From contig CAZOAZ010000023.1 of assembly GCA_964577955.1 (NCBI GenBank), positions 8,005-72,004 on the forward strand: 64,000 bases of DNA, in the 5' to 3' direction. Position 1 is the first letter of the stretch. The number at the start of each line of letters is the position of its first letter. Made by a program: the position numbers and the translations under genes. This document shows positions 24,729 through 58,318 of the stretch, piece after piece. This DNA is from an uncultured Bifidobacterium sp. GTDB lineage: Bacteria; Acidobacteriota; Vicinamibacteria; Vicinamibacterales; CAVVIG01. The notes under the pieces were generated by a model, which saw only the letters and a program-made list of their open reading frames with translations, did not search any database and had not been told where the DNA came from.

Positions 24729-25537
24729 CGCCGCTGGGCGACCGCGAGAATCATGTGGCTGATGTAGTCCGACGGCAGCACGGTGCCAAAGACTCGACTC
24801 GCCAGACGGTACGCCGTCGTTCCCTTGGTCTTCAGTCCCACTTCCCACTGGAGCCAGCGGCCGACGCCGGTGGCCTTGGCGATCGGCGCCACCTCGTGCA
24901 CCTTGAAGCCGCGCAGCTCGAGTTCGCGCCGCAGCTCTTCCCGCGTGAGCCGCCACTGGTAGAACCGTTGCGGCCGTTCGTAGCCGGACGCCGGATCGAA
25001 CTGATCGTCCCACCGTTCGAGCGCGGCGCGATCCCGCTTCATCAGCCGGCGGTTGTGGAATGGCACGCTCACGAAGAGCCAACCGCCCCTGCGGAGCAGG
25101 CGGCCGGCTTCGACAAGACAGTCGCCCAGTCCAGACTCGAAGTGCTCGAACGTCCCCCACGAGTAGTACGCGTCAAACGAGCCTGCGGCGAAATCGGTGT
25201 GCCGCAGATCGCCCTGACGGAAGTCGTGCTGGGGAAACCAGCTCTTGAGCCGCTCGATCGTCTCGGTGCTGATGTCGAGACCGGTCACCTGGTAGCCCCG
25301 ACCCGACAAGTACAGCGTCCACTCCCCGAGTCCGCAGCCGCCGTCGAGCAGATGGCTGCCGGCCGGCAATCGCTCGAGATAGGGCGCCACCACGCGGTAC
25401 TCATCGCTCTCGGCAACCGCGGACACGTCCGGCGGCCGCTGACGATCCTTCCAGAGCGCGCTCCAGTGCTGTTCGACGAACGCGGCTTCGTCGAGCGCGC
25501 CGGCGGCATCATCAACTGGAAGATAGTCTTTCCGCAC
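24725..25537 (-). CDS. Class I SAM-dependent methyltransferase
   Basis: Motifs LLDGGCGLGEW..VTGLDIS and FDAYYSWGTFEHF..LLRRGGWLFV. No in-frame ATG is available, so the start is assigned to the GTG at 25537, just below the upstream stop at 25548. Confidence 0.7.
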   Translation of the reverse strand: MRKDYLPVDDAAGALDEAAFVEQHWSALWKDRQRPPDVSAVAESDEYRVVAPYLERLPAGSHLLDGGCGLGEWTLYLSGRGYQVTGLDISTETIERLKSWFPQHDFRQGDLRHTDFAAGSFDAYYSWGTFEHFESGLGDCLVEAGRLLRRGGWLFVSVPFHNRRLMKRDRAALERWDDQFDPASGYERPQRFYQWRLTREELRRELELRGFKVHEVAPIAKATGVGRWLQWEVGLKTKGTTAYRLASRVFGTVLPSDYISHMILAVAQRR

Positions 25538-27383: not shown

Positions 27384-29486
27384 TCAGACGAACTCGCTCG
27401 GCGAGACGCGGAAGCCCGGCGTGCTTTCGTAGACCGGCTGTTCACCGGCGACGCCGCTGAACTCGACCGCACGCTGCAGCCGCGACATCGCGATGCGCGA
27501 AATGATCCGGCCGATCGCGTTGATCTCCGTGCCGTACTGCGCGTACTGGCTCTGGAGCATGTCGCGCTGATCGGCGGCGTGGAAGAACGTCACCCGGATC
27601 GGCTCGGCCAGCTTCACCGGCATCCGGTCGAAATCGTGCTCGAAGAGATCGCGGAGGTCGTAGCGGAAGATCTCGCTCTGCGGCTCGCCGAGGGCGAAGA
27701 TGTTGCGCTTCCGGGCCGCGCTGTAGCGGCGCAGCTCGCCGAGATAGTCGCCGTATTCGGCATCGGCTGAGGGATTGCGCTCGCGCAGCAGCTCCGCCGC
27801 GACGCCGAATGCCGCATCGTGAATGTCGTCCACCAGGTTCATCAACGCCATCGCCCGGTGGCGGAACAGGACGTTGTTGCCCAGTTCGCCGGCGATGTAC
27901 TGCTCGATCACCTTGCGGTCGCTGCGGATGAAGGCCTCGAGATCCTCCTTCCGATCCCACAGCTCATCCCGGGTCGCCTGGTTGAACGACACGTAGAGCT
28001 CGCGTATACCCGGCGAGAAGGTGTCGCGCCGGGCGTGCAGGACCTCGAGGATCTGCGACGGTGGAATCCCGCACAAACGCAGGAACCGCAACAGCTCGTA
28101 GAGAATCCGGTCCTGATAAAACAGCCCCATCGTCAAGGCAAACTCGCGGCACTCGAGATAGTCCTGAAAGGACATCGTTTTCGAGGCGACCGCGACTTCT
28201 TCCGGTTCCGCCGAGAGCAGCTCCCGGCCGTCGAACCGATAGGCGCCGAAGCAGCGCGGCACGATGCGGTATTTGGTCTGCAGCTCCCACTGCTGGATCG
28301 AGGCGTCCGTCGTGAGCTCGGTGCCGTCGAACATCATCAGCGTGAACATCGAGATCAGCTTCATGTCGGCGTCGGCCAGCTGCAGCACAGTCGCCATGTG
28401 CTTGGCCTTGGTGTCGCCCGGCAGGCCGAGAATGACCTCGGAGTAGGTGTTCGCGTCGCTGGCGTTGAACTGCGTCGCCACCTGCAACAGCTGATTGGCG
28501 GCGATGTTCTGCCGCTTGATATTGATCAGCACCTGGTTGTCGAGCGATTGCACGGAAGCGGAGACGCGTAGACTGCCCTGCAGCAGTTCGGCGCACTCCA
28601 GCACGCGCTCCTTCTGGTTCTTGCCGGTCGCGACATGGAGGTACGCCGGGTACCCGTAGCGCTCGCGCGTCCGCGCCAGGGCCCGGGTAATCTCGAGGTC
28701 CTGCTTGAACATGCCGAAGTTCACGTCGGCCATGTCGAGGACTTTGCCCTTGTAGCGTTGGGCGATGTACTCGAGCTCGTTCTCAAAACGACTCGCCGTC
28801 TTCCAGTAGACCTTGGTCCGCGCGCCAATCCCGTCGACGCAGAACGTGCAGGCAAACGGGCAGCCGCGATTGCTCTCGAGGAGTGGCGTGAGAGCGATTT
28901 CTTCCAGGAACGCGTCCAGGTAACCAGCGGTGTACGGCGACGGAATGAGGTCCAGATCGGTCACCCGCTGGGCGACGTCGCTGCCTTTCAGCAGCGCGCC
29001 GTCCACGAACGAGTGACAGCCTTCGATTCCTTTGCGGCGAACCGCCTCGCGATCGCCGCCGGCTTCGTACCACGCGTCGACCACTTTCGTGAATGCGTCT
29101 TCACCTTCGCCGGACACATGGAGGTCCGCCGCCGGGTGCTTCCGCAGCCAGCGCTCGCGGGCGCTATCGTCGATCGGATAGTTCGGGCCGCCGAACACGA
29201 TCAGCGTATCGGGCTGCCTCTCTCGAATCGCCTGAGCGACGGTGTAGGCGAGGTCGAGGTTCCACATGTAGTTCGACAGACCGACGATCGCCGGCCGCTC
29301 GCGGAGGAAGCCGTCGATGAACTGCTGCGGATGCTTGAAGAGGCGGACTTCGGCGCCGGCGGCATGCGTCGAATACTGATGCAGCCACGACTTGATGCAG
29401 GCGATCGCGTACGGCATCGTCTCGACGCCGTAGCCCATGGGGGTCACGTGCGCCAGGTCGCCGAGATAGATGAGGTCGCGATTCAT
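27384..29486 (-). CDS. B12-binding domain radical SAM enzyme (class B), copy 2
   Basis: 700 aa. The N-terminal B12-like region is PAIVGLSNYMWNLDLAY..TLIVFGGPNYP. The canonical motif is RGCPFACTFC (CX3CX2C). Confidence 0.88.
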   Translation of the reverse strand: MNRDLIYLGDLAHVTPMGYGVETMPYAIACIKSWLHQYSTHAAGAEVRLFKHPQQFIDGFLRERPAIVGLSNYMWNLDLAYTVAQAIRERQPDTLIVFGGPNYPIDDSARERWLRKHPAADLHVSGEGEDAFTKVVDAWYEAGGDREAVRRKGIEGCHSFVDGALLKGSDVAQRVTDLDLIPSPYTAGYLDAFLEEIALTPLLESNRGCPFACTFCVDGIGARTKVYWKTASRFENELEYIAQRYKGKVLDMADVNFGMFKQDLEITRALARTRERYGYPAYLHVATGKNQKERVLECAELLQGSLRVSASVQSLDNQVLINIKRQNIAANQLLQVATQFNASDANTYSEVILGLPGDTKAKHMATVLQLADADMKLISMFTLMMFDGTELTTDASIQQWELQTKYRIVPRCFGAYRFDGRELLSAEPEEVAVASKTMSFQDYLECREFALTMGLFYQDRILYELLRFLRLCGIPPSQILEVLHARRDTFSPGIRELYVSFNQATRDELWDRKEDLEAFIRSDRKVIEQYIAGELGNNVLFRHRAMALMNLVDDIHDAAFGVAAELLRERNPSADAEYGDYLGELRRYSAARKRNIFALGEPQSEIFRYDLRDLFEHDFDRMPVKLAEPIRVTFFHAADQRDMLQSQYAQYGTEINAIGRIISRIAMSRLQRAVEFSGVAGEQPVYESTPGFRVSPSEFV

Positions 29487-37562: not shown

Positions 37563-38753
37563 TCACGATGGTGACCCGTCCTTCGCGGGCGTGAGGCGCA
37601 CCTGTGCACGCAGGACACCGCCGTCCAGCGATGCGCCGGTGAACTCGCAACGTGCGCCGCCGATGTCGGTATAGGCGTGCGGATAGCCCTCGGCATCGAG
37701 CATCCGGATGAAGTCGTAGAGTTCGTCGATGCTCGCGCTGTCCGGTAGCCGGCTCTCAGCCGGGGTGCGGCGGCGGAATTCCACAACGTCGCCGGACTGC
37801 GGCTCCGGCACTGGCTGTTCGTCGAGAATGCGGCCGACCATCCTCGCCGCCAGTTCGGACGCACGAACGTAGATGTCTTGCGCGCTGCCGTCGAGCGCGA
37901 GCGGCGCCTTGAGATAGATCGGCCCGGCGTCCAGCTCCTCGCTCAAGCGGAACGCGCTCAGCACGGTCGTCCGGTGGCCGCGCAGGATCAGGTTCTGCAG
38001 CGGCGATCCGCCGCGGCCGTACGGCAGATCGGTCATGTGGAAGCCGACGCATTCGAAGCCGTTGACGATCTCGGCCGGCACCTTCCACGACCAGTGGACG
38101 AAGAAGATGTAGCGCGGTCCATGCGATCGGACGAGCGTCGCGAGGCTGTCGGGATTGTCGACAAGGATCCAGCGTCCCGGACGGTCGGCGAGGCATCGAT
38201 CGAAGACCTCGCGATTCCACGCCCCGCGAGCGGCGACCAGATAGCACTCACTCACATCCGGCCTCAGCCTGGTGCCGCTGCCGCTCTGGCGTTCGCGGCG
38301 TTCGAGACGGATCGCGGGATGGCCGGCAACCGTTTCCTCCCCCGTCGCGACGAATCCCGCCTGCTCGAACGTCCGCAGCGAAGCGCGATTCTCCGGCTTC
38401 ACGCGGGCGACGATGGCGACACGGGGATGGCGGCGCTGTAGCTGCACGCTGGCTTCGCGCAGCATCGTAACGCCGAGTCCGCGCTGCCGGCACGCCGGCG
38501 CCACGCTGATATCGACTTCTGCCTCACCGCCGCTTCGATCGAAGCGGATCTGGCCGACCGCGACGCCGTTCTCTTCAGCGACAAACATCTCGCAGTCGCT
38601 CGCCTGAAGTCGGCCGGCAAACCACCGTTGATGATCGGCCCAGGTGATTGGCTCGGACTGGAACGCCGAGGCGCGAGTCACCGAATCGTTAACCCACTCC
38701 CAGAGCAGCCGCGCATCGGCCGCGGTCGCGCGCCGCAGCGTGAGTGCGCTCAC
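37563..38753 (-). CDS. pseH: Fusion: PseH-like GNAT N-acetyltransferase + formyltransferase-like domain
   Basis: The N-terminal ~150 aa are GNAT (LRRATAADARLLWEWVNDSVTR..VGQIRFD..RQRGLGVTML). The C-terminal ~230 aa are Formyl_trans_N-like (FVHWSWKVPAEIV..GFHMTDLPYGRGGSPLQNLI..EELDAGPIY). GTG start with GTGA overlap with pseI. Confidence 0.7.
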   Translation of the reverse strand: MSALTLRRATAADARLLWEWVNDSVTRASAFQSEPITWADHQRWFAGRLQASDCEMFVAEENGVAVGQIRFDRSGGEAEVDISVAPACRQRGLGVTMLREASVQLQRRHPRVAIVARVKPENRASLRTFEQAGFVATGEETVAGHPAIRLERRERQSGSGTRLRPDVSECYLVAARGAWNREVFDRCLADRPGRWILVDNPDSLATLVRSHGPRYIFFVHWSWKVPAEIVNGFECVGFHMTDLPYGRGGSPLQNLILRGHRTTVLSAFRLSEELDAGPIYLKAPLALDGSAQDIYVRASELAARMVGRILDEQPVPEPQSGDVVEFRRRTPAESRLPDSASIDELYDFIRMLDAEGYPHAYTDIGGARCEFTGASLDGGVLRAQVRLTPAKDGSPS

Positions 38754-39796
38754 GAAATGTCGTCCTGCTGGACCGGCGCGTCGCTCGCAATCGCGCGTTT
38801 CGCGTAGCGGCCGAGCACGCCGGGGAAAGCGGACGGCGGCAGCCCCGGATGGTTCTTGCCCTGGCGGAGAACCGCGATGTTATCGCGGCTGAATACTTCC
38901 CCGGCGGCGATCGCCCGGGTGGCGAAGACGCTGCGGCGGGCGAAGGCACGGAGCTCGTCCTCCACCGGATCGACGACCTTCTCGCCGCTGCCGCGCACCA
39001 GTTCGGCCTGGCGGATTCGCGTCACCATCTCGCGCAATTCATGCGGTTCGAGCGCAAAGCGATGGTCGGGGCCGGCGAGCGCGTTGCTCAGCGTGAAGTG
39101 TTTCTCGATGATCGACGCGCCGCACGCGACTGCGGCCACCGGCGCGACGATCGGATCGCGGGAGTGATCGGAGAGCCCGACCGGCACCTGGAATCGATCC
39201 GCCAGCGTCACCAGGGCGCGCACGTTGATCGACGCGATCGGCGCCGGATAGGCCGCTGTGCACTGCAGCAGCGCCAGTTCGCGGTTGCCCGCCTCGCGGC
39301 AGGTGGCGACCGCTTCTTCCACTTCGGCGAGGTTCGAGGTGCCCGTCGACAGAATCATCGACGTGCCCTTCGCCGCGACATGGCGCAGCAACGGTGCATG
39401 GGTCATCTCGTAGGAGGCAATCTTGAAGGTCTCGACGTACGGATCCAGCCGATCGGCCGACTCCTCATCGAATGGCGTCGCGAGAAAGTGAACCGACCGC
39501 GCGCGGCAGTGGTCGGAAAGGACCGGCAGCCACTCGTACGGCATCTCCATCGCGGCGATGATGTCGACGATTGGCGTCGGTACCTTGAGGTAGTCGCTGA
39601 CGCCGGCACTCCTCGGATACATCCGCGCCGCCCGGAAGACCTGGAATTTCACGGCATCGGCGCCGGCGTCAGCCGCGACATCGATGAGCTGCCGGGCCAT
39701 CTGCAGATCGCGATTGTGGTTGCTGCCGGCTTCGGCGATGACATACACCGGATGCGCCGGGCCGACGTGGCGGTCGCCGATCCGGATCCCTGGCAT
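38750..39796 (-). CDS. pseI: Pseudaminic acid synthase (NeuB family with SAF domain)
   Basis: The start is taken at MPGIRIGDRHVGPAHPVYVIAEAGSNHN (ATG 39796, TGATG overlap with pseF). Motifs GLSDHS and EKHFTL..GPDH, plus a C-terminal SAF-like RSVFATRAIAAGEVF. Confidence 0.85.
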   Translation of the reverse strand: MPGIRIGDRHVGPAHPVYVIAEAGSNHNRDLQMARQLIDVAADAGADAVKFQVFRAARMYPRSAGVSDYLKVPTPIVDIIAAMEMPYEWLPVLSDHCRARSVHFLATPFDEESADRLDPYVETFKIASYEMTHAPLLRHVAAKGTSMILSTGTSNLAEVEEAVATCREAGNRELALLQCTAAYPAPIASINVRALVTLADRFQVPVGLSDHSRDPIVAPVAAVACGASIIEKHFTLSNALAGPDHRFALEPHELREMVTRIRQAELVRGSGEKVVDPVEDELRAFARRSVFATRAIAAGEVFSRDNIAVLRQGKNHPGLPPSAFPGVLGRYAKRAIASDAPVQQDDIS

Positions 39797-40524
39797 CACG
39801 CTTCGGCCGCCTGCATCGCGCGCAAGTAGTGCTCGGCCTGGCGGGCCTGGTCCGGGTAGTCGACCTCCAGCGAATACTTGTCGTCGTCCTGAACGAGGAG
39901 ATGCAGCCGCTCGCCGAACCACGCGTGCAGGGCGCGGTTGCCATCGGTGGCTTCGAGTGTCGACACGCGGACGCCGTAGACCGCGCCGTCCATCGCGAAG
40001 ATCTTCGGGTAGTCCTGAGTCCTGAAACCACGATCCGAGTTCATGAACGGCTCACAGGCGCCGGTCGCAGGATCGGTGATGACCTTCGCCCACTCGGGCC
40101 GGAAGCGCAGTTGCTGCGCCGTGCACACCGCGGTCGCCTCCGGAGTCCGTTCGAGTCGCGCGATGACTTCGTCGATCTGGCCGGTTTTCCGGATCGGAAC
40201 GTTGCCTTGCATCGTGATGGCGAGATCGGCGTGAAAACCGTCTCGGCTGGCAAGCAACCGCACGACCTGACGGATCGCATCGTCGAGCGCCGCGGTATCG
40301 GACGCGAGTTCGGCGGGACGCGGCACGAACTCGACGCCATACGCGCGGGCCAGTTCCTCGAGCGCGGGATCGTCCGACGACACCACCAGCCGATCGAGGC
40401 GCTTCGCGTCGAGCGCGGCTTCGAGCGTATACGCAAACATCGGCTTGCCGCAGAGCCGCGCGAGATGTTTGTCCGGAAACCTCAGGCTGCCTTTACGCCC
40501 GGGAATGATGCCGACGGTTTTCAT
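39796..40524 (-). CDS. pseF: Pseudaminic acid cytidylyltransferase (CMP-sugar synthetase family)
   Basis: 242 aa. The opening MKTVGIIPGRKGSLRFPDKHLARLCGKPM is typical of CTP_transf_3 family enzymes. Adjacent to pseI. Confidence 0.8.
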   Translation of the reverse strand: MKTVGIIPGRKGSLRFPDKHLARLCGKPMFAYTLEAALDAKRLDRLVVSSDDPALEELARAYGVEFVPRPAELASDTAALDDAIRQVVRLLASRDGFHADLAITMQGNVPIRKTGQIDEVIARLERTPEATAVCTAQQLRFRPEWAKVITDPATGACEPFMNSDRGFRTQDYPKIFAMDGAVYGVRVSTLEATDGNRALHAWFGERLHLLVQDDDKYSLEVDYPDQARQAEHYLRAMQAAEA

Positions 40525-40554: not shown

Positions 40555-42306
40555 CTAGACGTCCGCACGCGTGGCGCCGCGCACCCGCTCCGGGCGTTCC
40601 TGGACCTCGCCGGTGTGAGGATGGCGAACGGTGTTCTGCGCCCCGAGTGAATTGATGGCCTGCCAGGACAGTTCAACGACCTCCTCGTCAGGCAAGTCGC
40701 TGAAATTGGTGCGAACGTTTTCGCCCTGTTCGCCCAGTTTCAAGAAGTACTGTTCGATGATGTCTTCGTCCGCCGGCCCCTTCACCCCGGTCACCGCCTT
40801 GGCGATCAGACCGCGATCGAGTGCGAGCTGCCAGAATGCCGTGGCCGGATACGCCGTCGTGAAGAAGAAGACCTCCGGCTTGAGGTTGACGCGGTTGCAG
40901 AACTCCACCGTTTCACGAACGGTGTCGGCGGTTTCGCCCGGAGAACCAATCATGAACGAGCAGTCGGCGTAGCCCAGGACGCGCTGCGTCTCGCTGATCG
41001 CCAGCTCCATCTTTTCGATGGTCTGGCCGCTCTTGTCGATCTCCTTGAGCACGGTCGGACTGCCCGACTCAATCCCGTAGCCGGCTTGTCGCATGCCGAC
41101 GTCGTACGCCTGTTCGAGCATGTGCGGCCGGCCTTCCTTCCGCGCTCTGATCACATCGTCGGCAATGATGTTGGTGCGGCAGGTGCCGCCCCAGAGCACT
41201 TCGAAGCCACTCCGCGCCCGCCGCTCGCGAAGTTCAGCACAAAGCTGCAGCGCCCACCGGTAGTCGGTCATCAACAGATCGTCGAGGAAGTGCACGTAGG
41301 CCGCGCCGTAGTGCTCGACCAGAAACTGCATCTCGTCGACCACTTCCTTCGGACTGCGGAGCCGGTACTGCGCGCCGAGATACGCGGCGTAGCAGTAGTC
41401 GCACGCCTTGCCGGCATAGGGGCACCCGCGTGACGCGATCATCGACATACTGAACTGGCCGGGCTCGGTCGACGCACCGTCCTTCCACTTGCTCTTCCAA
41501 TTGAGATGCCCGACCGGATTTCGCTTGTAGACCTCTTCCTCCGGCCAGCGGCCGCGCAGCGGCCAGGGCAGGTGATCGAGGCCGCGCCGTTGCGCCTGCA
41601 CCGACGGCCGGTGGCCGTTGTCGCGGATATCGAAATCGCCGGGCCGAAGTTCGTGCCGATAGGCGATTCCCTTGACCGACGCCAGCGACCCGCGTTCCTC
41701 CAGACAGTGAAGCACTTCGGAGAACGTGACCTCGCCCTCCTCCTGCACGGCAATGTCGATCGGCAGGCGCCGAAGCATGAATTCGGGGGCGGATGACGCG
41801 ATGCCACCGCCGAGAATGATCGGCACATCGGGACAGAGCTTTCGGCAGAGTTCCGTGATGGCGCGGATGCGGCCATACTGCGTGATGATCCCGCCGATAC
41901 CGATCACATCGGGTTTTTGCTCGGAGAGTTTTTCGGTGATGCGCCGCTCGATCCAGGCGTTGAAGTCCGACGCCGGCTGCTTCACCGGGCCGCCGCGTTC
42001 GGCATTCAGATCGAGCACGTCGACCTGGTGTCCGTCCATGGCCGCTACGGCGCCGACGTAGCCCTGACCGATCGGCATGATGTTCGGAAAGGACCACTCG
42101 CGAATCGGCGCATTGATGAACAGCACACGCAGGCCGCGCGCCCTCGGCGTGAAGGCCCGCACGGATTCCTCAGTCGTAATGCGCGGCCACGAGTCGCTCA
42201 GCACCGAGCCGCCTGTATCGAAGCGCTGATGAAAGCGCGCCGGCGGCGGGCCGGAAACCGGCTGGCCGGCTCCGGCGAGAGGAAGAATCGTCTTGCCGCC
42301 ACTCAT
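40555..42306 (-). CDS. B12-binding domain radical SAM enzyme, copy 3, with non-canonical Cys spacing
   Basis: 583 aa. The B12-like region is RVLFINAPIREWSFPNIMPIGQGYV..PDVIGIGGI..PIILGGGIA. The cluster region RGCPYAGKACDYC (codons at 41424-41392) has CX6CX2C spacing instead of CX3CX2C. Confidence 0.8.
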   Translation of the reverse strand: MSGGKTILPLAGAGQPVSGPPPARFHQRFDTGGSVLSDSWPRITTEESVRAFTPRARGLRVLFINAPIREWSFPNIMPIGQGYVGAVAAMDGHQVDVLDLNAERGGPVKQPASDFNAWIERRITEKLSEQKPDVIGIGGIITQYGRIRAITELCRKLCPDVPIILGGGIASSAPEFMLRRLPIDIAVQEEGEVTFSEVLHCLEERGSLASVKGIAYRHELRPGDFDIRDNGHRPSVQAQRRGLDHLPWPLRGRWPEEEVYKRNPVGHLNWKSKWKDGASTEPGQFSMSMIASRGCPYAGKACDYCYAAYLGAQYRLRSPKEVVDEMQFLVEHYGAAYVHFLDDLLMTDYRWALQLCAELRERRARSGFEVLWGGTCRTNIIADDVIRARKEGRPHMLEQAYDVGMRQAGYGIESGSPTVLKEIDKSGQTIEKMELAISETQRVLGYADCSFMIGSPGETADTVRETVEFCNRVNLKPEVFFFTTAYPATAFWQLALDRGLIAKAVTGVKGPADEDIIEQYFLKLGEQGENVRTNFSDLPDEEVVELSWQAINSLGAQNTVRHPHTGEVQERPERVRGATRADV

Positions 42307-49988: not shown

Positions 49989-51146
49989 TCACTGCCTGAC
50001 CTGCGCGTCCTGATTGCCGTTGAACCACGCCCGCCTGGTCAGATCGGCCGCGAGCTGGATGCCGTCGCGGCTCCAGTGCGTGTCGTCCAGCCAGTAGATG
50101 AACTCGCCGCGCGAGAGGTCCCGGGCCGCAAGCTCCTGAAACGGCACCGTGACGTCAATCGTCGGAATGCCTTCGGCGACGAGCGCGTCCTGCAGCCGCG
50201 CCAGCACGTGCCGGTCGTCGCCCGGCGAGCGCGGCTCGTCGGCCAGCAGCGGGTAGTAGACCGTGTACTTGCTCGGCGCCAGCACCAGCACCGGCTCGTA
50301 GCCTTCCTTCCGCAACTCCGCTACGAGCGGCACGATGAAATCGCGGGCCGGCGCGATCTCGCGGTGGGAGTGAAAACCGTCGACATCCGACGGATAGAAC
50401 AACATCGTCTCGCCGGTCCGGAGATGGCGCTCGACGACGCGGTCCTTGTAGATATTGGGCAGGACGCGATCGTTGGCGAGCGTCAGAAACGCCTTTTCGG
50501 ACACGATCTTGAGCGGCGACGTGTACCACCAGCCGCGCAGCAGCGAACGCACGCGGTCGGCCTGACCGCCAATCACGGTCGCCAGCCACTGCTCGCGGCG
50601 GTCCTTCCCGTCAGCGGCGGCGCTTGCCGCCCGCAGTTGTTCGACCGGCTCGGACTCGGTCCACACGATGATCACGCGGCCAGATGAAAAGCCCAGGCGT
50701 TCGCGCAGCAATCGCACCGTCTGCAGGTACGCATACGGCCCGCCGGCGTTGTAGATTCGCCCGCCGGTCAGCGCGCTCAACTGCACCGGAAACGTGTCTG
50801 CATCGGTGACGCCGTAGCCGACCACGAACGAATCTCCGACGACCACGACGTCCGGACGAACGCGATCCGCGCCCGGCGGATTCCGGAAGCCGTTCGCGTC
50901 GGTCGTAAACACCTGCGGACGAATCTGTCGCAACGCCGGCAGATTGCCCATGTTCGACAGATTGCCGTGCGTTCGCTCGCTCTCGAATCGACGATTCGCC
51001 TGAAAGATCGCGCCGGGTTCCTGGTAGCGGGTCATGCACTCCCAGGCCTGAAAACAGAGCCGGTCGATCGGCAGGAACCGTGCACCGATATCGACGACGA
51101 GGAGTCCTGCGATGAGCAGCGGCAGCAAACGTCCCAGGCGAGGCAC
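49989..51146 (-). CDS. AlgX/AlgJ-like SGNH-fold polysaccharide O-acetyltransferase partner
   Basis: N-terminal signal/anchor [12 protein letters not shown], plus [11 protein letters not shown] (GDS) and [11 protein letters not shown] (DxxH). Sits directly downstream of an MBOAT gene. GTG start. Confidence 0.65.
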
Positions 51147-51158
51147 CGATACAGACTC

Positions 51159-52547
51159 TTAGAACTGGAAATAAAGAAACGGCGACGGCTGCGCGCCGTA
51201 GATCGCCACCATCGAGACCAGAAACAACAGCGCGAGCGCCGCGGTCGCCCCGCCGCCCCATTCGTGCTTCAGCTCGAACGAATTCGGGCCGACGTGCGAC
51301 AGCCAGCCGGCGACGAGCAGCATCACGACGAGACCGACGCCGGCGGTCATCGAGAAGCCCGGCTGGAAGACGAACATCTTTCGGAACATCGCGCCGGCCA
51401 TTTCGACCGACTGCGCACGGAACACCACCCAACCGAGCAGGACCAGAAGGAACGTCGCCGTTCCGCGAATCAGCGCCGGCACGCGGTCCCACGTACGGCC
51501 CAGGGCGCCGTAAATCGCCATCAGAATGCCGTGATAGATCCCCCAGATCACGAACGTCCAGGCCGCGCCATGCCACAACCCGCCGAGCGCCATCGTCAGC
51601 ACGAGATTGCGGGCGCGCTGCCAGCTGGTGCCGAAGACGCCGCCCATCGGCTGGAACAGGTAGTCGCGCAGCCATGACGACAGCGACATGTGCCACCGCC
51701 GCCAGAATTCCGGAATGCTCTTCGACTTGTACGGCGAGCTGAAGTTCTGCGGGATCCGGATGCCGAAGAGATATCCGAGACCGACCGCCATGTCGCTGTA
51801 ACCGGCGAAGTCGAAATAGAGCTGGTACGAATAGCCCAGCATGCAGAGCCAGGCCTCGAACGTCGACAGCTGGTCGTAACGCTGGAGCGCCGGGTTGATG
51901 ATCGCGGCGATCGTGTCGGCGATGAGCACCTTCTCGATCATGCCGATCGCGAAGAACGACCAGCCGCGATTCAAGTACTGGCGGCGGTCCGCTCGATCGA
52001 TCTGCTCGAGATCCTGCTCGATCTGCCGGAAGCGGACGATTGGACCGGCCACGAGCTGCGAGAACAACGACACGTAGGTGGCGTACTCCCAGAAGTTCCG
52101 CGTCGGCGTGATCGTCCCGCGATAGGCGTCGACGATGTAGGAGATCGAGTGGAAGGTGTAGAACGAGATGCCGACCGGAAGAATGATGTTGAGCGGCGCG
52201 ATGTGGATGTCGGCGCCGGTCCAGCGGCCGATCGTGACGAGCGACGACAGCCCGAAGTCGGCGTACTTGAAGAACGCCAGCACGGCAAGATCGCTGGCAA
52301 TCGAAATGACGAGACACAGCTTGCGGCGGCGCTCGTCGTTCCAGCGCAGCAGTCCCAGGCCGGCGACGTAGCTGACGATCGTCGAAAACGCGAGCAGCGC
52401 GCAGAATTTGTAGTTCCAGAAGCTGTAGAAGACGAAGCCGGTCGCCGTCAGCCAGACGTAGCGCTGGCGCTGCGTCTGCAGCCGCCAGAACACCAGGTAG
52501 GTGATCGGCAGGAAGGCGTAGAGAAAGATCAGGCTATTGAACAGCAT
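51159..52547 (-). CDS. MBOAT-family membrane O-acyltransferase (AlgI/DltB-like)
   Basis: The start is taken at MLFNSLIFLYAFLPI (ATG 52547). Conserved His motif FWRRWHMSLSSWLRDYLFQPMGG. Confidence 0.88.
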   Translation of the reverse strand: MLFNSLIFLYAFLPITYLVFWRLQTQRQRYVWLTATGFVFYSFWNYKFCALLAFSTIVSYVAGLGLLRWNDERRRKLCLVISIASDLAVLAFFKYADFGLSSLVTIGRWTGADIHIAPLNIILPVGISFYTFHSISYIVDAYRGTITPTRNFWEYATYVSLFSQLVAGPIVRFRQIEQDLEQIDRADRRQYLNRGWSFFAIGMIEKVLIADTIAAIINPALQRYDQLSTFEAWLCMLGYSYQLYFDFAGYSDMAVGLGYLFGIRIPQNFSSPYKSKSIPEFWRRWHMSLSSWLRDYLFQPMGGVFGTSWQRARNLVLTMALGGLWHGAAWTFVIWGIYHGILMAIYGALGRTWDRVPALIRGTATFLLVLLGWVVFRAQSVEMAGAMFRKMFVFQPGFSMTAGVGLVVMLLVAGWLSHVGPNSFELKHEWGGGATAALALLFLVSMVAIYGAQPSPFLYFQF

Positions 52548-54399
52548 GCGGAGTGGTCGCGGTTCGCAGTTCAAGGCCGACCAGATCGCCGTCGGTGAAG
52601 CGCGTGATGTAGGCGTCGCTGCTCAGGAACTCGAGCAGCGGCCGCTCCAGCCGCGACTGGAATTCGAGCGTCAGGTTGAAGACCGTCGAACCGGGCAGCG
52701 GCGCACCCGTGACCGCGAACGGCCACGCCGTCGGCAGCAGCTTCGGCGGCTCGGGACTGAGATCGGCGCGACGCGACAGGACGACCGCCTGGCTGTCGCG
52801 AAGTTGACGAATGACGTGCTGAATGTCCTCGGGCGTGAACGCCGCCGTCAGCGACGGCTGGTACATGAACGGCTTCAACTGAAACTGCAGATAGATCGGC
52901 AGCCGGTAGTACTCGAGCAGATGCATGTAGTAGAGGCGATCCCGGCCGAAGTGCTCCACGGCCCTGGCGATTCCAGCTTGAATCGTCTGCTTGCTCGGCG
53001 CTGGCGCGGCTGACGCCGTGGGCTCGTCCTGCGCCGCCAGCCGTTTCAGCAACGACGGAACAAACAACATCGCGTCGTAGAACTGCAACGGCAGGGCGAG
53101 GCCGACGAGAAGCACCGCGGCCAGCGCGTTTCGCCGGACCGCAGGCGCCATCCGCTCTCCGGCCCAGGCGATGGTGGCCAGCAGGACGGGCAGCCCGCTG
53201 TAGACGATGTGAACGACGTCCGCCTTGCCGAAACTCGCCCGCTGCATCAGCAGCGCCATGACGAAGTAGGCGGCCAGAAGCGGACGCCGCTCGCGGAACC
53301 CGGGCTGCTGCCACGCCGACCAGAACCAGGCCACCATCAGCACGGTCAGCCCGAGCAGCGTGATCATCGGCACGCTGGGATCGATCTGCGTGTTCCAGCC
53401 GCCGGCGGCGAACGTCACGACGGGCGCCAGGTAGGCGATCGCCGGCCGCCAGCTGCCATCGATCAAAAACAGCAGTCCGGCGGCGACGACGAGCGCCACG
53501 GCTGTGAGCGAGAAGCCGAGCCCCAGCGTCCGTGTCCGCTCGCGGGAATCGCCGAGCAACAGCGTCAGCGTCCACATCACGCCGAGTCCGGCGCTGCTGA
53601 CAATCGCCATGTCCGGTGAACACAGCAGCGTCACCGTCAGCAGCAGTACGACGCTCGCCTTCGCGCCCGGTGTCGGTTCGGCCGTGCAGCGCCACGCCGC
53701 GACGAGCGTCGTCAACGGCAGCATGAAGCGCAGCCAGGTGTAGTTGAGCCCGAGATACGGATTGAAGAAGCCGATCGCGAGACCGGCAAACCACAGCGTG
53801 GCGCGACGGCGGTCGCCGAGGAGCGCGGCGAGCACGATCCACAGCAAATACAGGCCGGCGAGATACTGGAGCCCGAAGGCCAACGCGTAGCCTGGAAGCA
53901 GACCGAAGGCGCGGCCAAGCCAGACGGTTGGATAGAGCAGCAGCGGACCGTAGAAGAACGTGAAGTCGATGAAGGGCACCGCGCCCGCGATCGCGCGGTA
54001 GGCGGTGTCCTCGAAGTACAGCGCTTCGGCGAGGAGGAATCCCCCTTGCCGCCGGTACATCCACGCAAACAGCGCGACGTGTCCAGCGAGGACCAGGATG
54101 ACAGCGGCAGACGGCAGGAGAAACAGTCGGCCGCCCGCTTCGGGTCCGGGCCATGTCGGTCTCGGGATCACTCGCGCCACCAGCGACGCGCTGACGATCA
54201 GCGTGACCGCGTACAGCACGTACGCGACCGTGTTGTTGAACCCGGCGAGCGCCGAGGCGCTCAGAAGATGCTGCGACGGCGGAAACAGGTACGGCAGCGC
54301 GAACACCGACACCGCCATCGCACCGAGCGACACGGCAACCAGCGCGAGCTGCGATGTTGACGCAGCCGAGCGGGACGGAAGGGAATCCACAGCCAGCAC
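52534..54399 (-). CDS. Large polytopic membrane protein with C-terminal soluble domain (unknown; polymerase/GT-C-like candidate)
   Basis: ~621 aa if started at the GTG at 54399, 1 nt below the FabH-like stop. More than 10 hydrophobic helices and a ~170-aa C-terminal hydrophilic domain. No family motif recognised. Confidence 0.55.
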   Translation of the reverse strand: MLAVDSLPSRSAASTSQLALVAVSLGAMAVSVFALPYLFPPSQHLLSASALAGFNNTVAYVLYAVTLIVSASLVARVIPRPTWPGPEAGGRLFLLPSAAVILVLAGHVALFAWMYRRQGGFLLAEALYFEDTAYRAIAGAVPFIDFTFFYGPLLLYPTVWLGRAFGLLPGYALAFGLQYLAGLYLLWIVLAALLGDRRRATLWFAGLAIGFFNPYLGLNYTWLRFMLPLTTLVAAWRCTAEPTPGAKASVVLLLTVTLLCSPDMAIVSSAGLGVMWTLTLLLGDSRERTRTLGLGFSLTAVALVVAAGLLFLIDGSWRPAIAYLAPVVTFAAGGWNTQIDPSVPMITLLGLTVLMVAWFWSAWQQPGFRERRPLLAAYFVMALLMQRASFGKADVVHIVYSGLPVLLATIAWAGERMAPAVRRNALAAVLLVGLALPLQFYDAMLFVPSLLKRLAAQDEPTASAAPAPSKQTIQAGIARAVEHFGRDRLYYMHLLEYYRLPIYLQFQLKPFMYQPSLTAAFTPEDIQHVIRQLRDSQAVVLSRRADLSPEPPKLLPTAWPFAVTGAPLPGSTVFNLTLEFQSRLERPLLEFLSSDAYITRFTDGDLVGLELRTATTPHAVQ

Positions 54400-54400
54400 G

Positions 54401-55348
54401 TTAGGTTGCGAGCGCCAGAAGAGCGCCCCAGTGAAGCCCGGCGCCAAATGCCGCGAACACGATCGGCGCGCCCGCAGCGGCGCCGCCGCTCTCGGCCCAT
54501 TCCGCCGCCGCAATCAGCAGCGACGCCGACGACGTGTTGCCGTAGCGTTCGACGTTCGACACGAAGCGGTCGCGCGGTGCGCCGACGACCTTTGCCACTT
54601 GATCCGTGAGGTTGCGGTTGGCCTGATGCAGAAGAAACGCCGCGACGCGGTCCACCGGAATGTCGTGCCGCGCCAGGAGGTCGGTGATCGTCTGCGGGAC
54701 TTTGCGCGCGGCCTGCATGATCACCGTGCGGCCGTCCATCTGCATCGGCCCCTCATGCGGCAGCTGCAGCGCATCGGCAAAGGCGCCGTCCGAGTGGACG
54801 AGGGCATCGACGATGCGAGCCTGACCACCGTGCGTGCTGACGAGACAGGCGCCGGCTCCGTCTCCAAAGAGCACGGCAATCTGCGACGCCGTGCCCGGCC
54901 GGCCAACGACCGCCGACATCTTCTCGGCGCCGACGACCAGGATGTTGGGATACGCACCGGTGAGCCGCGAGGCGAGCACGAGCGCGAAGAGACTGCCGGC
55001 GCTCGCCATCGTGACATCCAAGGCCGGAACCGATCCCAGTTGCAGCGCCTGCGCCACCCGCGCCGCCGGCCCGGGAAACGCGCGGTCAGAGGTCCCACTC
55101 GCGACGATCACAAGATCGACCTTCGGCGTCCCCGCTTTCCGGAGACACGCCGACGCCGCCGCGACCGCCATGTCGATCACCGATTCGTCGTCGGCCGCGT
55201 AGCGGCGGGTTTCGATTCCCGACGTCCGAGCAATCCATTCCGCGTCGGTTCCGGTGGCCGCGGCCATTTCCGTGTTGTCGACGATGCGTGCCGGCAGATA
55301 CGCGCTGCAGGCACCGACGAACGCGGCCGGACCGGCGGTGTGTGTCAC
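54401..55348 (-). CDS. KAS III (FabH)-like enzyme with Ser replacing the active-site Cys (probable acyl-ACP acyltransferase)
   Basis: 315 aa. ALDVTMASAGSLFAL aligns residue for residue with E. coli FabH FDVAAACAGFTYAL, so Cys112 corresponds to Ser116 (AGC codon, complement of 55001-55003). The His (LLHQAN) and Asn (YGNTSSAS) are retained. Confidence 0.8.
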   Translation of the reverse strand: MTHTAGPAAFVGACSAYLPARIVDNTEMAAATGTDAEWIARTSGIETRRYAADDESVIDMAVAAASACLRKAGTPKVDLVIVASGTSDRAFPGPAARVAQALQLGSVPALDVTMASAGSLFALVLASRLTGAYPNILVVGAEKMSAVVGRPGTASQIAVLFGDGAGACLVSTHGGQARIVDALVHSDGAFADALQLPHEGPMQMDGRTVIMQAARKVPQTITDLLARHDIPVDRVAAFLLHQANRNLTDQVAKVVGAPRDRFVSNVERYGNTSSASLLIAAAEWAESGGAAAGAPIVFAAFGAGLHWGALLALAT

Positions 55349-55590
55349 CGGCGATGCTTCTGTACGTAGGCGGCGATCCGTTCGATCGATTCGAACGTCT
55401 GCGCGTCGAGGTCGCGATCCGGAATCTTGATCCCGAACTCGGTCTCGAGTGCCGTCACGAGTTCCGGCAGCCCGAAGGAATCCAGCACGCCGGCGTCGAA
55501 GAGCGACCGATGGGCGTCGAGCGTGAGCGGCGTCTGGGTGCGGCCGACATCCTTCAGAATGGTGCGGACACGGGTGTCGAGATCGTCCAT
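55345..55590 (-). CDS. Acyl carrier protein
   Basis: 81 aa from the ATG at 55590, with GAGGAG 3 nt upstream. The phosphopantetheine-site motif is GVLDSFGLPELV. Confidence 0.8.
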   Translation of the reverse strand: MDDLDTRVRTILKDVGRTQTPLTLDAHRSLFDAGVLDSFGLPELVTALETEFGIKIPDRDLDAQTFESIERIAAYVQKHRR

Positions 55591-55600
55591 GAGCTCCTCG

Positions 55601-56362
55601 TCAGGCGCGCGAATGATCCGGGACCCCGATGGCAAAGACTTCGGTCCCGACAAACGGGAGGTTGAACCGGTACGCGAAATCGGCGATGTCCATCACCATC
55701 CGCTTGGCCGGCGTGTATTCGCCGAGGCCGACTTTGTCCATCGCCGACCGCGGCATGCGGCGCATCAGTTGACGGTAGAACAGCGAGTGCACCGGCCAGC
55801 CGCACGTGAACGCACGAATCACCTTGTAGCCGGCGCGCTGCATTTTTTCGGTCAGGTCGGCCTTGGTGTAGTGGCGGTAATGGCCGTTGGCGCGGCCGTT
55901 GTCGTCGAACTTGCCGCCGGGCACACTGATGAGCGTGTAGCGCTTGCACATCTCGCGCATCTTCCGCAGCGCGAGCACGTCGTCGCTCAAGTGCTCGAGG
56001 ACCTGGATCGAGATCACCAGGTCGTACGACAGACCGGCGACATCGTCTTTCAGGATGTCGAGGTTGAAGATGTCGCTCTTCGGCAGCTGTTCGCGGCAAT
56101 AGCGAAGCGCGGTTTCGCTGAACTCGCTGCCGGCGAGCTGCGCGTGCGGATAGCGCTCGGCCAGCATCTTCAACATCGTGCCTTCGCCGCACCCCATGTC
56201 GAGCACGGAGTCGAACTGCAGCCGCTTCAGTTCCTTGAGCACCATCCGGCGCAGATAGCGCGGCGCCGGCGCGTAGCGCTCCATGTCGCGCCACTGAAAC
56301 CAGATGTCGTCGTAGAACGCCTTGTGGTTGTCGGCGGTGTTCTCGGCGGTGTTGTCAGTCAT
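55601..56362 (-). CDS. Class I SAM-dependent methyltransferase
   Basis: VLDMGCGEGTML and YDLVISIQVLEHLSDD. Confidence 0.8.
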   Translation of the reverse strand: MTDNTAENTADNHKAFYDDIWFQWRDMERYAPAPRYLRRMVLKELKRLQFDSVLDMGCGEGTMLKMLAERYPHAQLAGSEFSETALRYCREQLPKSDIFNLDILKDDVAGLSYDLVISIQVLEHLSDDVLALRKMREMCKRYTLISVPGGKFDDNGRANGHYRHYTKADLTEKMQRAGYKVIRAFTCGWPVHSLFYRQLMRRMPRSAMDKVGLGEYTPAKRMVMDIADFAYRFNLPFVGTEVFAIGVPDHSRA

Positions 56363-57296
56363 GCATCGCCTTATGCGAAACGCGGGCGCTGGGCGACGGG
56401 CTCACCTGCGACCGCGACCAATCGATGACAAACAGCGGACGCTGCACCACGTTCTTGTAGGTGCGCGCCAGATAGAGACTCATGAGCGGCATCGTGATCA
56501 CGAGGAAGTAGAGCGCCGTGACCGCCGCGGCCACGGCGACGCCGCTCGCGCTCAGCCCGAGCAGGAGCACGATCACCGGAAACAGCACGCCAACCGCCGC
56601 CGCGAGGTAGAGCACGAGACGCAGCGGAAACGTCGACCCGGAGAGGATGCTGGCGACCGCGAACACCGTCATCCGCCACAGGTTGTAGTGGGTCTCTCCG
56701 TAAGTGCGTCGGGCGCGCTGATACGGAATGCCGACGCGCACGAAACCGACGTAGCCGAGTTCGGCGCGCAGCGAAATGAACGTCGTTCGCGAAGCGAGGA
56801 TCGCTTCGCGGACCTGATGGGTGAACATCGAGAACTCGCCCATCCACATGACGATCTCGCTGTCAGCGACGCCGCGGTTGGCGAGATAGAACAGCTTGCG
56901 GCCAAAGGTGACGAGCGCCGGCTCGTCGCGCTGCGAGCGGACACCGTAGGCCACCTGCGCGCCGCCCTGAATCGCCTTGTAGAACTCGAGGAGGAGTTCG
57001 GGCGGATCCTCGCAGTCGACGTCCACCATCGCGTAGTAGTCGCTGTCGGCCGCCGACAGGCCGGCGACGAGCGCCGCATGGTAGCCGAAATTTTTCGAGA
57101 GCGTGACGACATTCACCCGAGGATCGCGAGCCCGAAGCTCGAGAATCTTCTCGAGCGTGCCGTCCTCGCTGCAGTTGTTGACGAAGATGATGTGCCAGTC
57201 GAGATCGGTGGTCTCGAGCGCCTTCCGGGCGCGCTCGTAGAAGAACGGCACGTTCAGCAGCTCGTTGCGCGACGGCACGATGACGTTGAGTCTCAC
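56355..57296 (-). CDS. Polyprenyl-phosphate glycosyltransferase (GT2, ArnC/GtrB/DPM1-like) with two C-terminal TM helices
   Basis: The start is assigned to the GTG at 57296 (GTGA overlap with the upstream stop). Motifs LNVIVPSRNE..IIFVNNCSEDGT..MVDVDCEDPPELL, with C-terminal helices VFAVASILSGSTFPLRLVLYLAAAV and VAVAAAVTALYFLVITMPLM. Confidence 0.8.
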   Translation of the reverse strand: MRLNVIVPSRNELLNVPFFYERARKALETTDLDWHIIFVNNCSEDGTLEKILELRARDPRVNVVTLSKNFGYHAALVAGLSAADSDYYAMVDVDCEDPPELLLEFYKAIQGGAQVAYGVRSQRDEPALVTFGRKLFYLANRGVADSEIVMWMGEFSMFTHQVREAILASRTTFISLRAELGYVGFVRVGIPYQRARRTYGETHYNLWRMTVFAVASILSGSTFPLRLVLYLAAAVGVLFPVIVLLLGLSASGVAVAAAVTALYFLVITMPLMSLYLARTYKNVVQRPLFVIDWSRSQVSPSPSARVSHKAMHD

Positions 57297-58318
57297 GCTT
57301 GAACCGTCTTTCTCTGGAGCGACGACGACAGGCGGCGGGCACGGGCCCGGCGGACGCGGGCAAACGCCGCCAGGACATGCTGTCCGATGGGGTTGGTGCA
57401 CAGCGCCGCGAGCGCCGTATAGGCCGGCGACAGTCCGATGTCGCGCAGCTGCCGCAGCACGTCGCGATAGCCGTTGGCGAGGGCGAAGTCGCCGTGCGAG
57501 ACCGCGGCCAGTTCGGCGACGAGAAAGCGCCGGCCCTGGGTGCGCGCCGCCCGGCGCTTGAGCGCGGTCTCGTCGTCGACCAGACCCGGCCGCGCCGATC
57601 GGGCCAGCGCCAGCCCGCGATCGAGAATCGTCCGGAATTCCTGGTGCCAGCGCGCCGGATTGAGCCACGAGGTGACGGTGATGGGGTGGACGCGCATCTC
57701 GACCAGCGGATCCGCGACGTAGGCCACGTCACCGCGCAGCGCCAGGCGCACCCACATCATGTAGTCGGCGCACAGCAGATCGGTGTCGAAGCCGCCGGTT
57801 TCGAGGTACGCCGTCCGCCGCGCCATCACCGACGAGCAGCAGACGTTGTGGTTCTCCAGATAGCGCAGGAACTCCTGGTTGCCGGGAATCACCCGCGAGT
57901 CCGGATAGGCGCGAACGACGCGCTGCGACGCACCGTTGGCGTCGACTTCGTACGCCGCGCAGTGCACCATGCTCGCCGACGGATGGGCGTCCAGCATGCC
58001 GCTCAAACGCTCCAGGAACGTCGGGGCGTAGAGATCGTCGTCGTGCACAATGCAGACGTAGTCGCCCCGCGCCATCTGGAGCAGCAGGTTCATGTTCGGG
58101 AACGGACCGATGTTGGTCTCATTGCGGTGCGAGCGGAGCCGCCCGTCGCTGAATCCGGACATCACCGCCGGCGTCGCGTCGGTCGAGCAGTTGTCCGAGA
58201 CGATGACCTCGTAGTCCGTGAAGGTCTGCGCGAAGATCGACTCGAGGAACGGCTTCAGCATGCCCGACCGGTTGTAGGTCGGCACGCAGACCGAGATTTT
58301 CGGCACCCGCGCGGTCAT
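57293..58318 (-). CDS. Glycosyltransferase family 2
   Basis: ISVCVPTYNRSGMLKPFLESIFAQTFTDYEVIVSDNCSTDAT and VHDDDLY. Confidence 0.88.
   Translation of the reverse strand: MTARVPKISVCVPTYNRSGMLKPFLESIFAQTFTDYEVIVSDNCSTDATPAVMSGFSDGRLRSHRNETNIGPFPNMNLLLQMARGDYVCIVHDDDLYAPTFLERLSGMLDAHPSASMVHCAAYEVDANGASQRVVRAYPDSRVIPGNQEFLRYLENHNVCCSSVMARRTAYLETGGFDTDLLCADYMMWVRLALRGDVAYVADPLVEMRVHPITVTSWLNPARWHQEFRTILDRGLALARSARPGLVDDETALKRRAARTQGRRFLVAELAAVSHGDFALANGYRDVLRQLRDIGLSPAYTALAALCTNPIGQHVLAAFARVRRARARRLSSSLQRKTVQA

Follow-up and report, generated by a model that had tools for sequence, protein, structure and literature searches.

A FabH-derived enzyme with serine in place of the catalytic cysteine, its dedicated carrier protein and a putative MBOAT-SGNH route of glycan acylation in Acidobacteriota

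The DNA analysed here (the window) is a stretch of 64,000 nucleotides (nt) from contig CAZOAZ010000023.1 of assembly GCA_964577955.1 (positions 8,005 to 72,004, forward strand), deposited as an uncultured Bifidobacterium sp. and placed by GTDB in the Acidobacteriota (Vicinamibacterales, CAVVIG01). [quoted passage not shown] A carrier protein of 81 aa (acyl carrier protein, ACP; 55345..55590, minus strand) is encoded directly upstream, and the two are called the ACP-KAS pair below. A membrane-bound O-acyltransferase (MBOAT; 51159..52547, minus strand) and an SGNH transferase (49989..51146, minus strand) are encoded in the same operon. The surrounding genes, including family 2 glycosyltransferases (GT2s), Wzx, epimerases, NeuB and others, form a glycan operon, and no fab genes were found near the pair. 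We infer from the sequences that the ACP-KAS pair is the cytoplasmic donor half of a four-part system acylating an exported glycan.

Both KAS III domains of Pfam, the N-terminal ACP_syn_III (PF08545) and the C-terminal ACP_syn_III_C (PF08541), were matched by the product of 54401..55348. In HMMER alignments with the solved FabHs of Aquifex (2ebd), S. aureus (1zow) and B. subtilis (8vd9), Ser116 was aligned without gaps to the catalytic Cys ('ldvtmaSagslfal' against 'fdisaaCsgfiyal'). An alignment with a manually entered sequence of E. coli FabH also put Ser116 on the catalytic residue, Cys112. The Ser116 codon (55001..55003, minus strand) was read directly from 55003 to 55001 as AGC in the context ACG ATG GCG AGC GCC GGC. 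His241 (LLHQAN) and Asn271 (YGNTSSAS) correspond to His244 and Asn274 of FabH, so that the enzyme has a Ser-His-Asn triad in place of the Cys-His-Asn triad of condensing KAS III. The three residues occupy the catalytic columns in 120 of the 120 best homologues, which are 53–65% identical to the enzyme. Because the serine is invariant among them, a sequencing or base-calling error at Ser116 was rejected. The enzyme missed the NCBIfam cut-offs for fabH, clearly in the case of TIGR00747 (211.4 against 292.1) and narrowly in the case of NF006829 (248 against 249). Its AlphaFold2 (AF2) model has a predicted local distance difference test (pLDDT) score of 92.8 and superposes on FabH structures with template modelling (TM) scores of 0.89–0.92. 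By sequence as well as by predicted fold, the closest solved proteins are genuine FabHs at 29–33% identity.

The comparison with E. coli FabH (about 30% identity) was extended to residues outside the triad. The roles of these residues (docking patch, W32, tunnel and acyl pocket) are those given in the FabH literature. Zhang et al. 2001 reportedly centred the basic AcpP-docking patch of E. coli FabH on Arg249. This patch is lost in the Ser clade, with R36 changed to V or T, K214 to M or L, R249 to N in 117 of 120 homologues, and K257 to A. On the other hand, W32 is kept (116 of 120), and so are the residues lining the pantetheine tunnel and those of a small pocket for the acyl group (F87, M142, F157, L189 and L/M205). 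The enzyme thus shares with FabH the fold, the His-Asn pair, W32 and the Phe87 pocket, and differs in the Cys112 to Ser exchange, in the lost docking residues, in its scores below the fabH cut-offs, in its pairing with a carrier other than AcpP and in its location outside any fab cluster. FabH has acetyl-CoA:ACP transacylation as a side activity. The Ser enzyme is unlikely to be an ordinary condensing FabH.

The carrier gene is translationally coupled to the Ser-enzyme gene, its TGA overlapping the GTG start in the sequence GTGA at 55348..55345. A GAGGAG site lies 3 nt 5' of the carrier ATG, directly after the TGA of an upstream methyltransferase gene. The product matched Pfam PP-binding (E 4e-10), with the phosphopantetheine serine in GVLDSFG. 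Its best solved relatives are stand-alone peptidyl carrier proteins (PCPs) and D-alanyl carrier proteins (7r49_H, 8jf2_F and 6bug_A, about 1e-6), and AcpP ranks behind them at 1e-3. It carries a net charge of –4, where E. coli AcpP has –15. It has the LDSFG site in common with DltC, and the NCBIfam DltC score is 37.6 against a cut-off of 68. By sequence, the carrier resembles DltC and stand-alone PCPs more closely than AcpP and is weakly acidic. The original prediction, made from the letters of the window, had described the gap-free replacement of Cys112 by Ser116 (AGC), the conserved His and Asn, the GTGA coupling to an 81-aa ACP with its LDSFG and GAGGAG sites, and the setting in a glycan operon. 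The alignments with solved FabHs, the reading of the codon and the gene content agree with that description on every one of these points.

The MBOAT (Pfam MBOAT; 51159..52547, extendable to a TTG at 52574) is of the AlgI/PatA type and is the putative acceptor of the acyl group on the carrier. Its best solved relative is DltB (1e-34), and it scored 197 bits against the 375-bit cut-off of NCBIfam dltB (TIGR04091). It has the conserved catalytic His in GLWHGAAW and ends in the hexapeptide FLYFQF (51162..51179, minus strand), which fits the acyl-shuttle motif FXYXXF with its acyl-accepting Tyr. The motif and its function were defined in published work in which the Tyr is auto-acetylated in PatA, while in the Dlt system the shuttle Tyr is carried by a separate microprotein, DltX (PMC12148441). 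The adjoining SGNH protein is AlgX-like (Pfam ALGX), with an N-terminal hydrophobic membrane anchor and the motifs GDSF and DDTHW, and is a putative final transferase to the glycan. Five adjacent genes of the window are densely spaced on one strand, with gaps from –41 to 12 nt. The MBOAT and the SGNH protein had been missed in the original prediction, and their presence in the same operon makes periplasmic O-acylation the better reading.

Comparative genomics of the pair was performed by scanning one genome per species for the Ser enzyme, which gave 80 loci. All are labelled Acidobacteriota except L021 ('uncultured Arcobacter sp.'), and the cultured organisms among them are Paludibaculum fermentans (L034) and Granulicella sp. 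S190 (L075). In 76 of the 80 genomes, the gene immediately upstream of the Ser enzyme encodes the ACP, and the median distance between the two is 15 nt. A same-strand MBOAT was present in 43 of the 55 loci with full flanks, and in 42 of these 43 the order is MBOAT, SGNH, SGNH, ACP and KAS. The same order appeared in four metagenomic contigs by their precomputed Pfam labels. This five-gene module, in which an MBOAT, an ACP and a Ser-KAS III are joined by two SGNH proteins each about 450 aa long, is widespread in Bryobacterales and Terriglobia, for example in L002 at 5569-10927. Since it sits in unrelated neighbourhoods, the target of the stand-alone module is probably a common envelope polymer. 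The WHG sequence and a terminal FxYxxF are found in 60 of 60 ACP-linked MBOATs, and both linked SGNH proteins keep GDS, GxN and DxxH, most of them with N-terminal signal anchors.

The original prediction had proposed to look for an ACP-loading enzyme nearby. Besides the Ser enzyme, the conserved five-gene module encodes no candidate loader of the carrier, which speaks for the Ser enzyme in that role, and an AMP-binding gene is absent from it except in L005. In that locus the AMP-binding (acyl/adenylate-forming) gene at 8930-10543 overlaps the stop of the Ser-KAS III gene, which is rare among the loci. Its product recalls DltA and may load the carrier instead of the Ser enzyme or in addition to it. 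With the L005 gene as the query, no AMP-binding homologue was detected in the window. Where the ACP-KAS pair stands without an MBOAT, it adjoins a 242-aa GT2, sugar-nucleotide enzymes or unrelated genes. The 242-aa GT2 is conserved beside the pair in six such loci (L023, L053, L057, L071, L072 and L074), and near it there are also LssY_C proteins, a methyltransferase fused to a GT2, and a membrane protein similar to YfhO.

A second arrangement, ACP-KAS-(GT-C)-MBOAT-AlgX, is found in the window, the P0124 contig, L086, L090, L091 and L092. The gene in brackets encodes a predicted GT-C glycosyltransferase. AlgX-like orthologues follow the MBOAT in all five of the other loci, and in L091 the Ser enzyme directly abuts the MBOAT. 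L086 was considered as an MBOAT-AlgX operon lacking the Ser enzyme, and this was rejected by tblastn because its first, truncated gene is the Ser enzyme. The MBOAT of the P0124 contig was called as two open reading frames (ORFs), 10784-11809 (341 aa) and 11809-12171 (120 aa), which is probably a frameshift or an assembly error rather than a case of the shuttle helices being encoded separately as in DltX. In the more distantly related operons L087 and L089, which share the GT-C gene, ACP, KAS, MBOAT and AlgX are all absent together. A third group (L038, L062 and L064) has ACP-KAS-MBOAT-AlgX with another MBOAT lineage.

In the MBOAT-based search, the ACP-KAS pair was present only next to MBOAT homologues at least 74% identical to that of the window. 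The MBOATs of L091 and L092, at 74–78% identity, again adjoin the pair. The next relatives (52–60% identical by tblastn, 54–62% in the MAFFT alignment) and the generic AlgI-like MBOATs (34–44%) are without it: a hidden Markov model (HMM) search found no ACP-KAS beside MBOATs 52–60% or 34–44% identical, and the same C-terminal motif is present there. In the tree, the ACP-linked MBOATs are polyphyletic, and no fewer than three separate lineages of MBOAT and two types of SGNH protein are associated with the pair. Therefore, the ACP-KAS pair behaves as a cassette that joined several MBOAT-SGNH systems independently, and such independent joining is hard to explain without a functional link.

A profile search of 1.84 billion cluster representatives gave a compact family of about 25–30 top-ranked clusters, mostly Ser-bearing and with many fragments, down to about 250–270 bits. 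FabHs with Cys and Arg249 start at about 260 bits and then fill nearly all lower ranks. The Ser clade is small and restricted to Acidobacteriota, and its members carry the database name 'ketoacyl-ACP synthase III'. In a fast neighbour-joining (NJ) tree, all Ser sequences and four Cys/Asn249 sequences fell in one group with a bootstrap of 15/30, a support too weak to establish that the serine arose once; a midpoint-rooted NJ tree was uninformative. The four sequences (P0164, P0176, P0185 and P0286) are KAS III proteins that keep the Cys and have Asn for Arg249, and they may represent the ancestral state of the Ser clade. P0164 (locus L088) adjoins an AurF-like oxygenase gene. P0169, a divergent Ser member, lies on a contig of just 2 kb.

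The original prediction had likened the enzyme to DpsC- and CerJ-type acyltransferases. DpsC, CerJ and ChlB3 were not among the 60 best of 71 PDB sequence matches at E≤1, nor among the best 50 Foldseek matches of the model. The active sites also differ, being Ser-His-His in DpsC and Cys-His-Asp in CerJ and ChlB3 (PMC9573744). A kinship with DpsC or CerJ was rejected on these grounds. Since FabHs are nearest and the three proteins are not among these matches and have different active sites, the sequence and the model place the Ser enzyme in an independent FabH-derived Cys-to-Ser lineage, not a DpsC-type one. What stands of the analogy is the level of 'works like': the KAS III fold is reused for acyl transfer with a dedicated ACP, and DpsC also has Ser for Cys. 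The relatedness does not stand, as the proteins are not close relatives and DpsC, CerJ and ChlB3 belong to polyketide clusters. The wider claim that the enzyme is an acyltransferase and not a condensing enzyme agrees with an ordinary FabH being unlikely, with the dedicated carrier and with the context of glycan acylation.

The route proposed for the window operon has three steps. In the first, Ser116, as the nucleophile, would take a short-chain acyl unit, the likeliest being acetyl or some other C2–C4 group, from acyl-coenzyme A (acyl-CoA). The enzyme would then pass it to the phosphopantetheine thiol of the dedicated DltC-like carrier, acting as a transacylase and not as a condensing enzyme; such acyl-O-Ser chemistry can be likened to that of FabD and to the proposal for DpsC. 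By analogy to DltC and DltB, the acyl-carrier would dock on the MBOAT at its cytoplasmic side, and the conserved His of this enzyme would move the acyl group to the Tyr of its own C-terminal FLYFQF on the periplasmic side. Finally, as in PatA-PatB and DltX-DltD, the Ser of the AlgX-like SGNH protein may take the acyl group and esterify a hydroxyl of the polysaccharide of the operon, which the neighbouring GT-C enzyme would also decorate in the periplasm. Templates for the transfer from MBOAT to Tyr to SGNH protein have been published (PMC12148441). The conserved Phe87 pocket argues against long chains, and a C2–C4 acyl-carrier would be the product whether the enzyme loads by transacylation or by the decarboxylation considered below. 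The cargo cannot be an ATP-activated amino acid because there is no DltA-type adenylating enzyme and a FabH-derived enzyme stands in its place.

The proposed route would be Dlt-like, with a FabH-derived loader in the place of DltA. With the Dlt system of teichoic acid D-alanylation (DltA-DltC-DltB-DltX-DltD) it shares a small dedicated carrier with a DltC-like GxLDSFG, an MBOAT nearest to DltB with the catalytic His, the Tyr of an FXYXXF motif and an extracytoplasmic SGNH transferase. Unlike Dlt, the window cassette has a Ser-His-Asn enzyme where DltA would be. [quoted passage not shown] An AlgX-like or Lipase_GDSL_2 protein serves as the SGNH partner instead of DltD, the host (an acidobacterium) is Gram-negative, and the proposed target is a polysaccharide. 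The systems AlgI-AlgJ/AlgX, PatA-PatB and WssH-WssI resemble it in the MBOAT, which is about 460 aa long and has F[IL]YFQF at its C-terminus, in the AlgX-like SGNH protein and in the polysaccharide operon. In contrast, they are described as using acetyl-CoA and no carrier protein (PMC12148441), whereas the window carrier and its presumed loader share the operon of the MBOAT and the SGNH protein and are gained or lost together with them. The whole would be a hybrid design, in which a Dlt-style carrier donor and a FabH-derived loader for DltA are combined with a PatA/AlgI-style MBOAT with its fused shuttle motif.

The gene between the Ser enzyme and the MBOAT (52534..54399, minus strand) encodes a polytopic membrane protein of 621 aa without a Pfam match, from a family of about 25 members. 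Its AF2 model (pLDDT 88) was matched by Foldseek to ArnT, AftA, DPY19, PglB/OST and Emb with a probability of 1.0 and TM scores of 0.39–0.46. From this predicted fold it appears to be a GT-C glycosyltransferase of an apparently uncatalogued GT-C family. Complexes of Emb with AcpM (7bvc, 7bvh and 7bx8) are among the fold matches, and the ACP gene of the window lies two genes upstream. A BLASTP comparison of the 621-aa protein with the YfhO-like protein of L057 gave no similarity. A GT2 (56355..57290, minus strand, start approximate; Pfam Glycos_transf_2) matched NCBIfam PgfS (1e-32) and ArnC (3e-23) over its full length, both below the cut-off, and is probably a polyprenyl-phosphate sugar synthase supplying the GT-C enzyme. 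Taken together, the GT-C model and the position of its gene downstream of this GT2 indicate that the operon also encodes a periplasmic glycosylation step, and the GT-C enzyme belongs to a decoration cassette outside the acyl-transfer core. A SAM-dependent methyltransferase (55601..56362, minus strand; Pfam Methyltransf_25/12/23) is encoded directly upstream of the carrier. A conserved link of the ACP-KAS pair to this methyltransferase and to the GT2 at 56355..57290 was considered and rejected, as no homologue occurs in the other loci; the upstream GT2 at 57293..58318 gave just one weak match of 104 residues, in L044.

We put the probability that the ACP-KAS pair feeds the MBOAT-SGNH system at about 0.65–0.7, with both loading chemistries and a condensation variant counted. 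For the Ser enzyme as an acyl-CoA:carrier transacylase feeding this route, the odds are about even. Several points weigh against the proposal. Towards CoA thioesters, serine is less nucleophilic than cysteine, and the engineered C112S form of E. coli FabH has reportedly lost transacylation. The C116S mutant of CerJ is inactive (PMC9573744). The retained His-Asn pair is decarboxylation machinery and fits the rival loading chemistry equally well. In about 9 to 12 of the 55 fully covered loci, the 10 kb around the ACP-KAS pair contain no MBOAT, and coupling in cis is therefore not obligatory. The nearest MBOATs without the pair, 52–60% identical by tblastn, have the same C-terminal motif; because such close relatives keep it, the MBOAT may use acyl-CoA alone and the pair may be accessory. 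The cassette may thus alter the donor or add to it and yet not be indispensable.

The rival that survives best keeps the same pathway and changes the loading step. The housekeeping FabD would malonylate the carrier, and the Ser enzyme would be a malonyl-ACP decarboxylase that makes acetyl-ACP for the MBOAT. The enolate-stabilising His241 and Asn271 are invariant while the acyl-accepting Cys is gone, and the small pocket suits an acetyl product. Davies et al. 2000 are said to have found that E. coli FabH C112S keeps malonyl-ACP decarboxylation and loses condensation and transacylation. KSQ domains and Cys-to-Ser/Gln ketosynthase mutants, which act as malonyl-ACP decarboxylases, are comparable in that the Cys is lost and the decarboxylation residues His/Asn(His) are kept, and here too the product would be acetyl-ACP; they differ in being KS I/II-type polyketide synthase domains or laboratory mutants, and none is known to be coupled to an MBOAT. 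However, FabD would have to accept a weakly acidic DltC-like carrier. The loss of the basic patch for acidic ACPs points to an enzyme tuned to its own carrier and is silent on FabD. W32 stacks on the adenine of CoA; 116 of 120 homologues retain this residue, which would not be needed by an enzyme that acts on ACP only, and acetyl-CoA is a cheaper acetyl source. We consider decarboxylative loading unlikely.

Direct acylation of a cytoplasmic sugar is improbable. Here the Ser enzyme would be a terminal acyltransferase like DpsC or CerJ and would move the acyl group from the carrier to the amine of a pseudaminic/legionaminic-type nonulosonate or to a nucleotide sugar. Genes for NeuB, a CMP-transferase, a PseB-like and a DegT-like protein lie 10–17 kb downstream in the window operon, some loci have the pair by sugar-nucleotide genes and a GT2 with no MBOAT nearby, and KAS III-like sugar acylators such as CerJ exist (PMC9573744). 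Such a role would leave nothing in the conserved module to load the carrier, and the nonulosonate block has a GNAT-formyltransferase of its own. The enzyme is unrelated to DpsC, CerJ and ChlB3 beyond the common fold, with a different triad. Moreover, homologues of NeuB, PseB and the GNAT-formyltransferase were absent from all of the first 90 fetched loci. The original prediction of ACP-dependent acylation of the glycan or of a nonulosonate amine is therefore broadly supported for the glycan and not supported for the amine, and on the same count (0 of 90) its suggestion of a recurrent module linked to pse genes is not supported either.

The chance is slimmer still that the Ser enzyme condenses as DpsC does. 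It would then make acetoacetyl- or 3-oxoacyl-carrier, and the glycan would receive a 3-oxo- or, after reduction elsewhere, a 3-hydroxybutyryl-type ester. Some bacterial exopolysaccharides bear 3-hydroxybutanoyl esters, and the His-Asn pair and the FabH-like pocket are complete. DpsC has been described as a Ser-containing enzyme that catalyses Claisen condensation (PMC9573744). On the other side, the conserved module encodes neither a ketoreductase nor a malonyl transferase, and the AcpP docking site for malonyl-AcpP is lost. It is very improbable that the carrier is mainly a structural or regulatory partner of the adjacent GT-C enzyme, as AcpM is for mycobacterial Emb, and not a donor for the MBOAT. 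The GT-C gene does lie between the Ser enzyme and the MBOAT, and the Emb-AcpM complexes are among its structural matches. However, GT-C homologues occur without ACP-KAS in L087 and L089, over 40 loci combine ACP-KAS with MBOAT and SGNH genes in the absence of a GT-C, and the Ser enzyme directly abuts the MBOAT in L091. The reading that an ordinary FabH and ACP serve fatty-acid synthesis here, and that the serine reflects an error of alignment or sequencing, can be dismissed in spite of the database name and the NCBIfam match 1 bit under its cut-off, given the invariant Ser in 120 of 120 homologues, the gap-free alignment, the lost Arg249, the lack of fab genes nearby and the steady linkage to MBOAT and SGNH genes.

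In the current view, the Dlt pathway is the only MBOAT-SGNH system with a carrier protein and the others draw on acyl-CoA (PMC12148441). No described module of KAS III, ACP, MBOAT and SGNH was found in the open-access literature, nor was anything directly relevant on Campylobacter Cj1303/fabH2 or on FabH C112S. The setting of the Ser enzyme and its carrier beside an MBOAT and an SGNH transferase suggests that some soil bacteria decorate surface sugars from a carrier-protein acyl donor, a route otherwise known only for D-alanine on Gram-positive teichoic acids. Tentatively, and at a little under even odds, the mobile two-gene donor cassette (Ser-His-Asn loader and DltC-like carrier) that plugs into AlgI/PatA-type MBOAT-SGNH systems would be a third design of envelope-polymer acylation. 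The donor of these systems may have been switched from acyl-CoA to a private acyl-carrier, and acyl groups other than acetate may thereby be present on acidobacterial surface glycans. The case is real and conserved and conflicts with a general statement made recently in the field, although inference is its whole basis.

MBOAT-SGNH systems modify alginate, cellulose, peptidoglycan and teichoic acids, with effects on biofilm properties, lysozyme resistance and resistance to antimicrobial peptides. If the proposed route is true, donor choice in these systems would be modular and evolvable, and a natural Cys-to-Ser ketosynthase would be at hand, the chemistry of which (transacylase or decarboxylase) is directly testable. 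Several thousand database entries named 'ketoacyl-ACP synthase III' would be misannotated. It would also give a route to ester decorations on the exopolysaccharides of Acidobacteriota, an abundant soil phylum with a little-studied surface chemistry.

Other genes of the window are of separate interest. A second SGNH protein (Lipase_GDSL_2, 642 aa, 23232-25160, minus strand) lies far from the MBOAT and has no detectable similarity to the SGNH proteins of the module. A GNAT acetyltransferase fused to the C-terminal domain of a formyltransferase (37563-38753, minus strand) adjoins NeuB (38750-39922) and the CMP-transferase (39796-40524), and is a candidate for N-acylation or N-formylation of the nonulosonate. 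Three B12-binding radical SAM genes (17143-18963, 27384-29486 and 40555-42306, all minus strand) share one single-strand glycan operon of more than 60 kb with at least five SAM methyltransferases, and this gene content suggests that the polysaccharide of the operon is unusually heavily C- and O-methylated.

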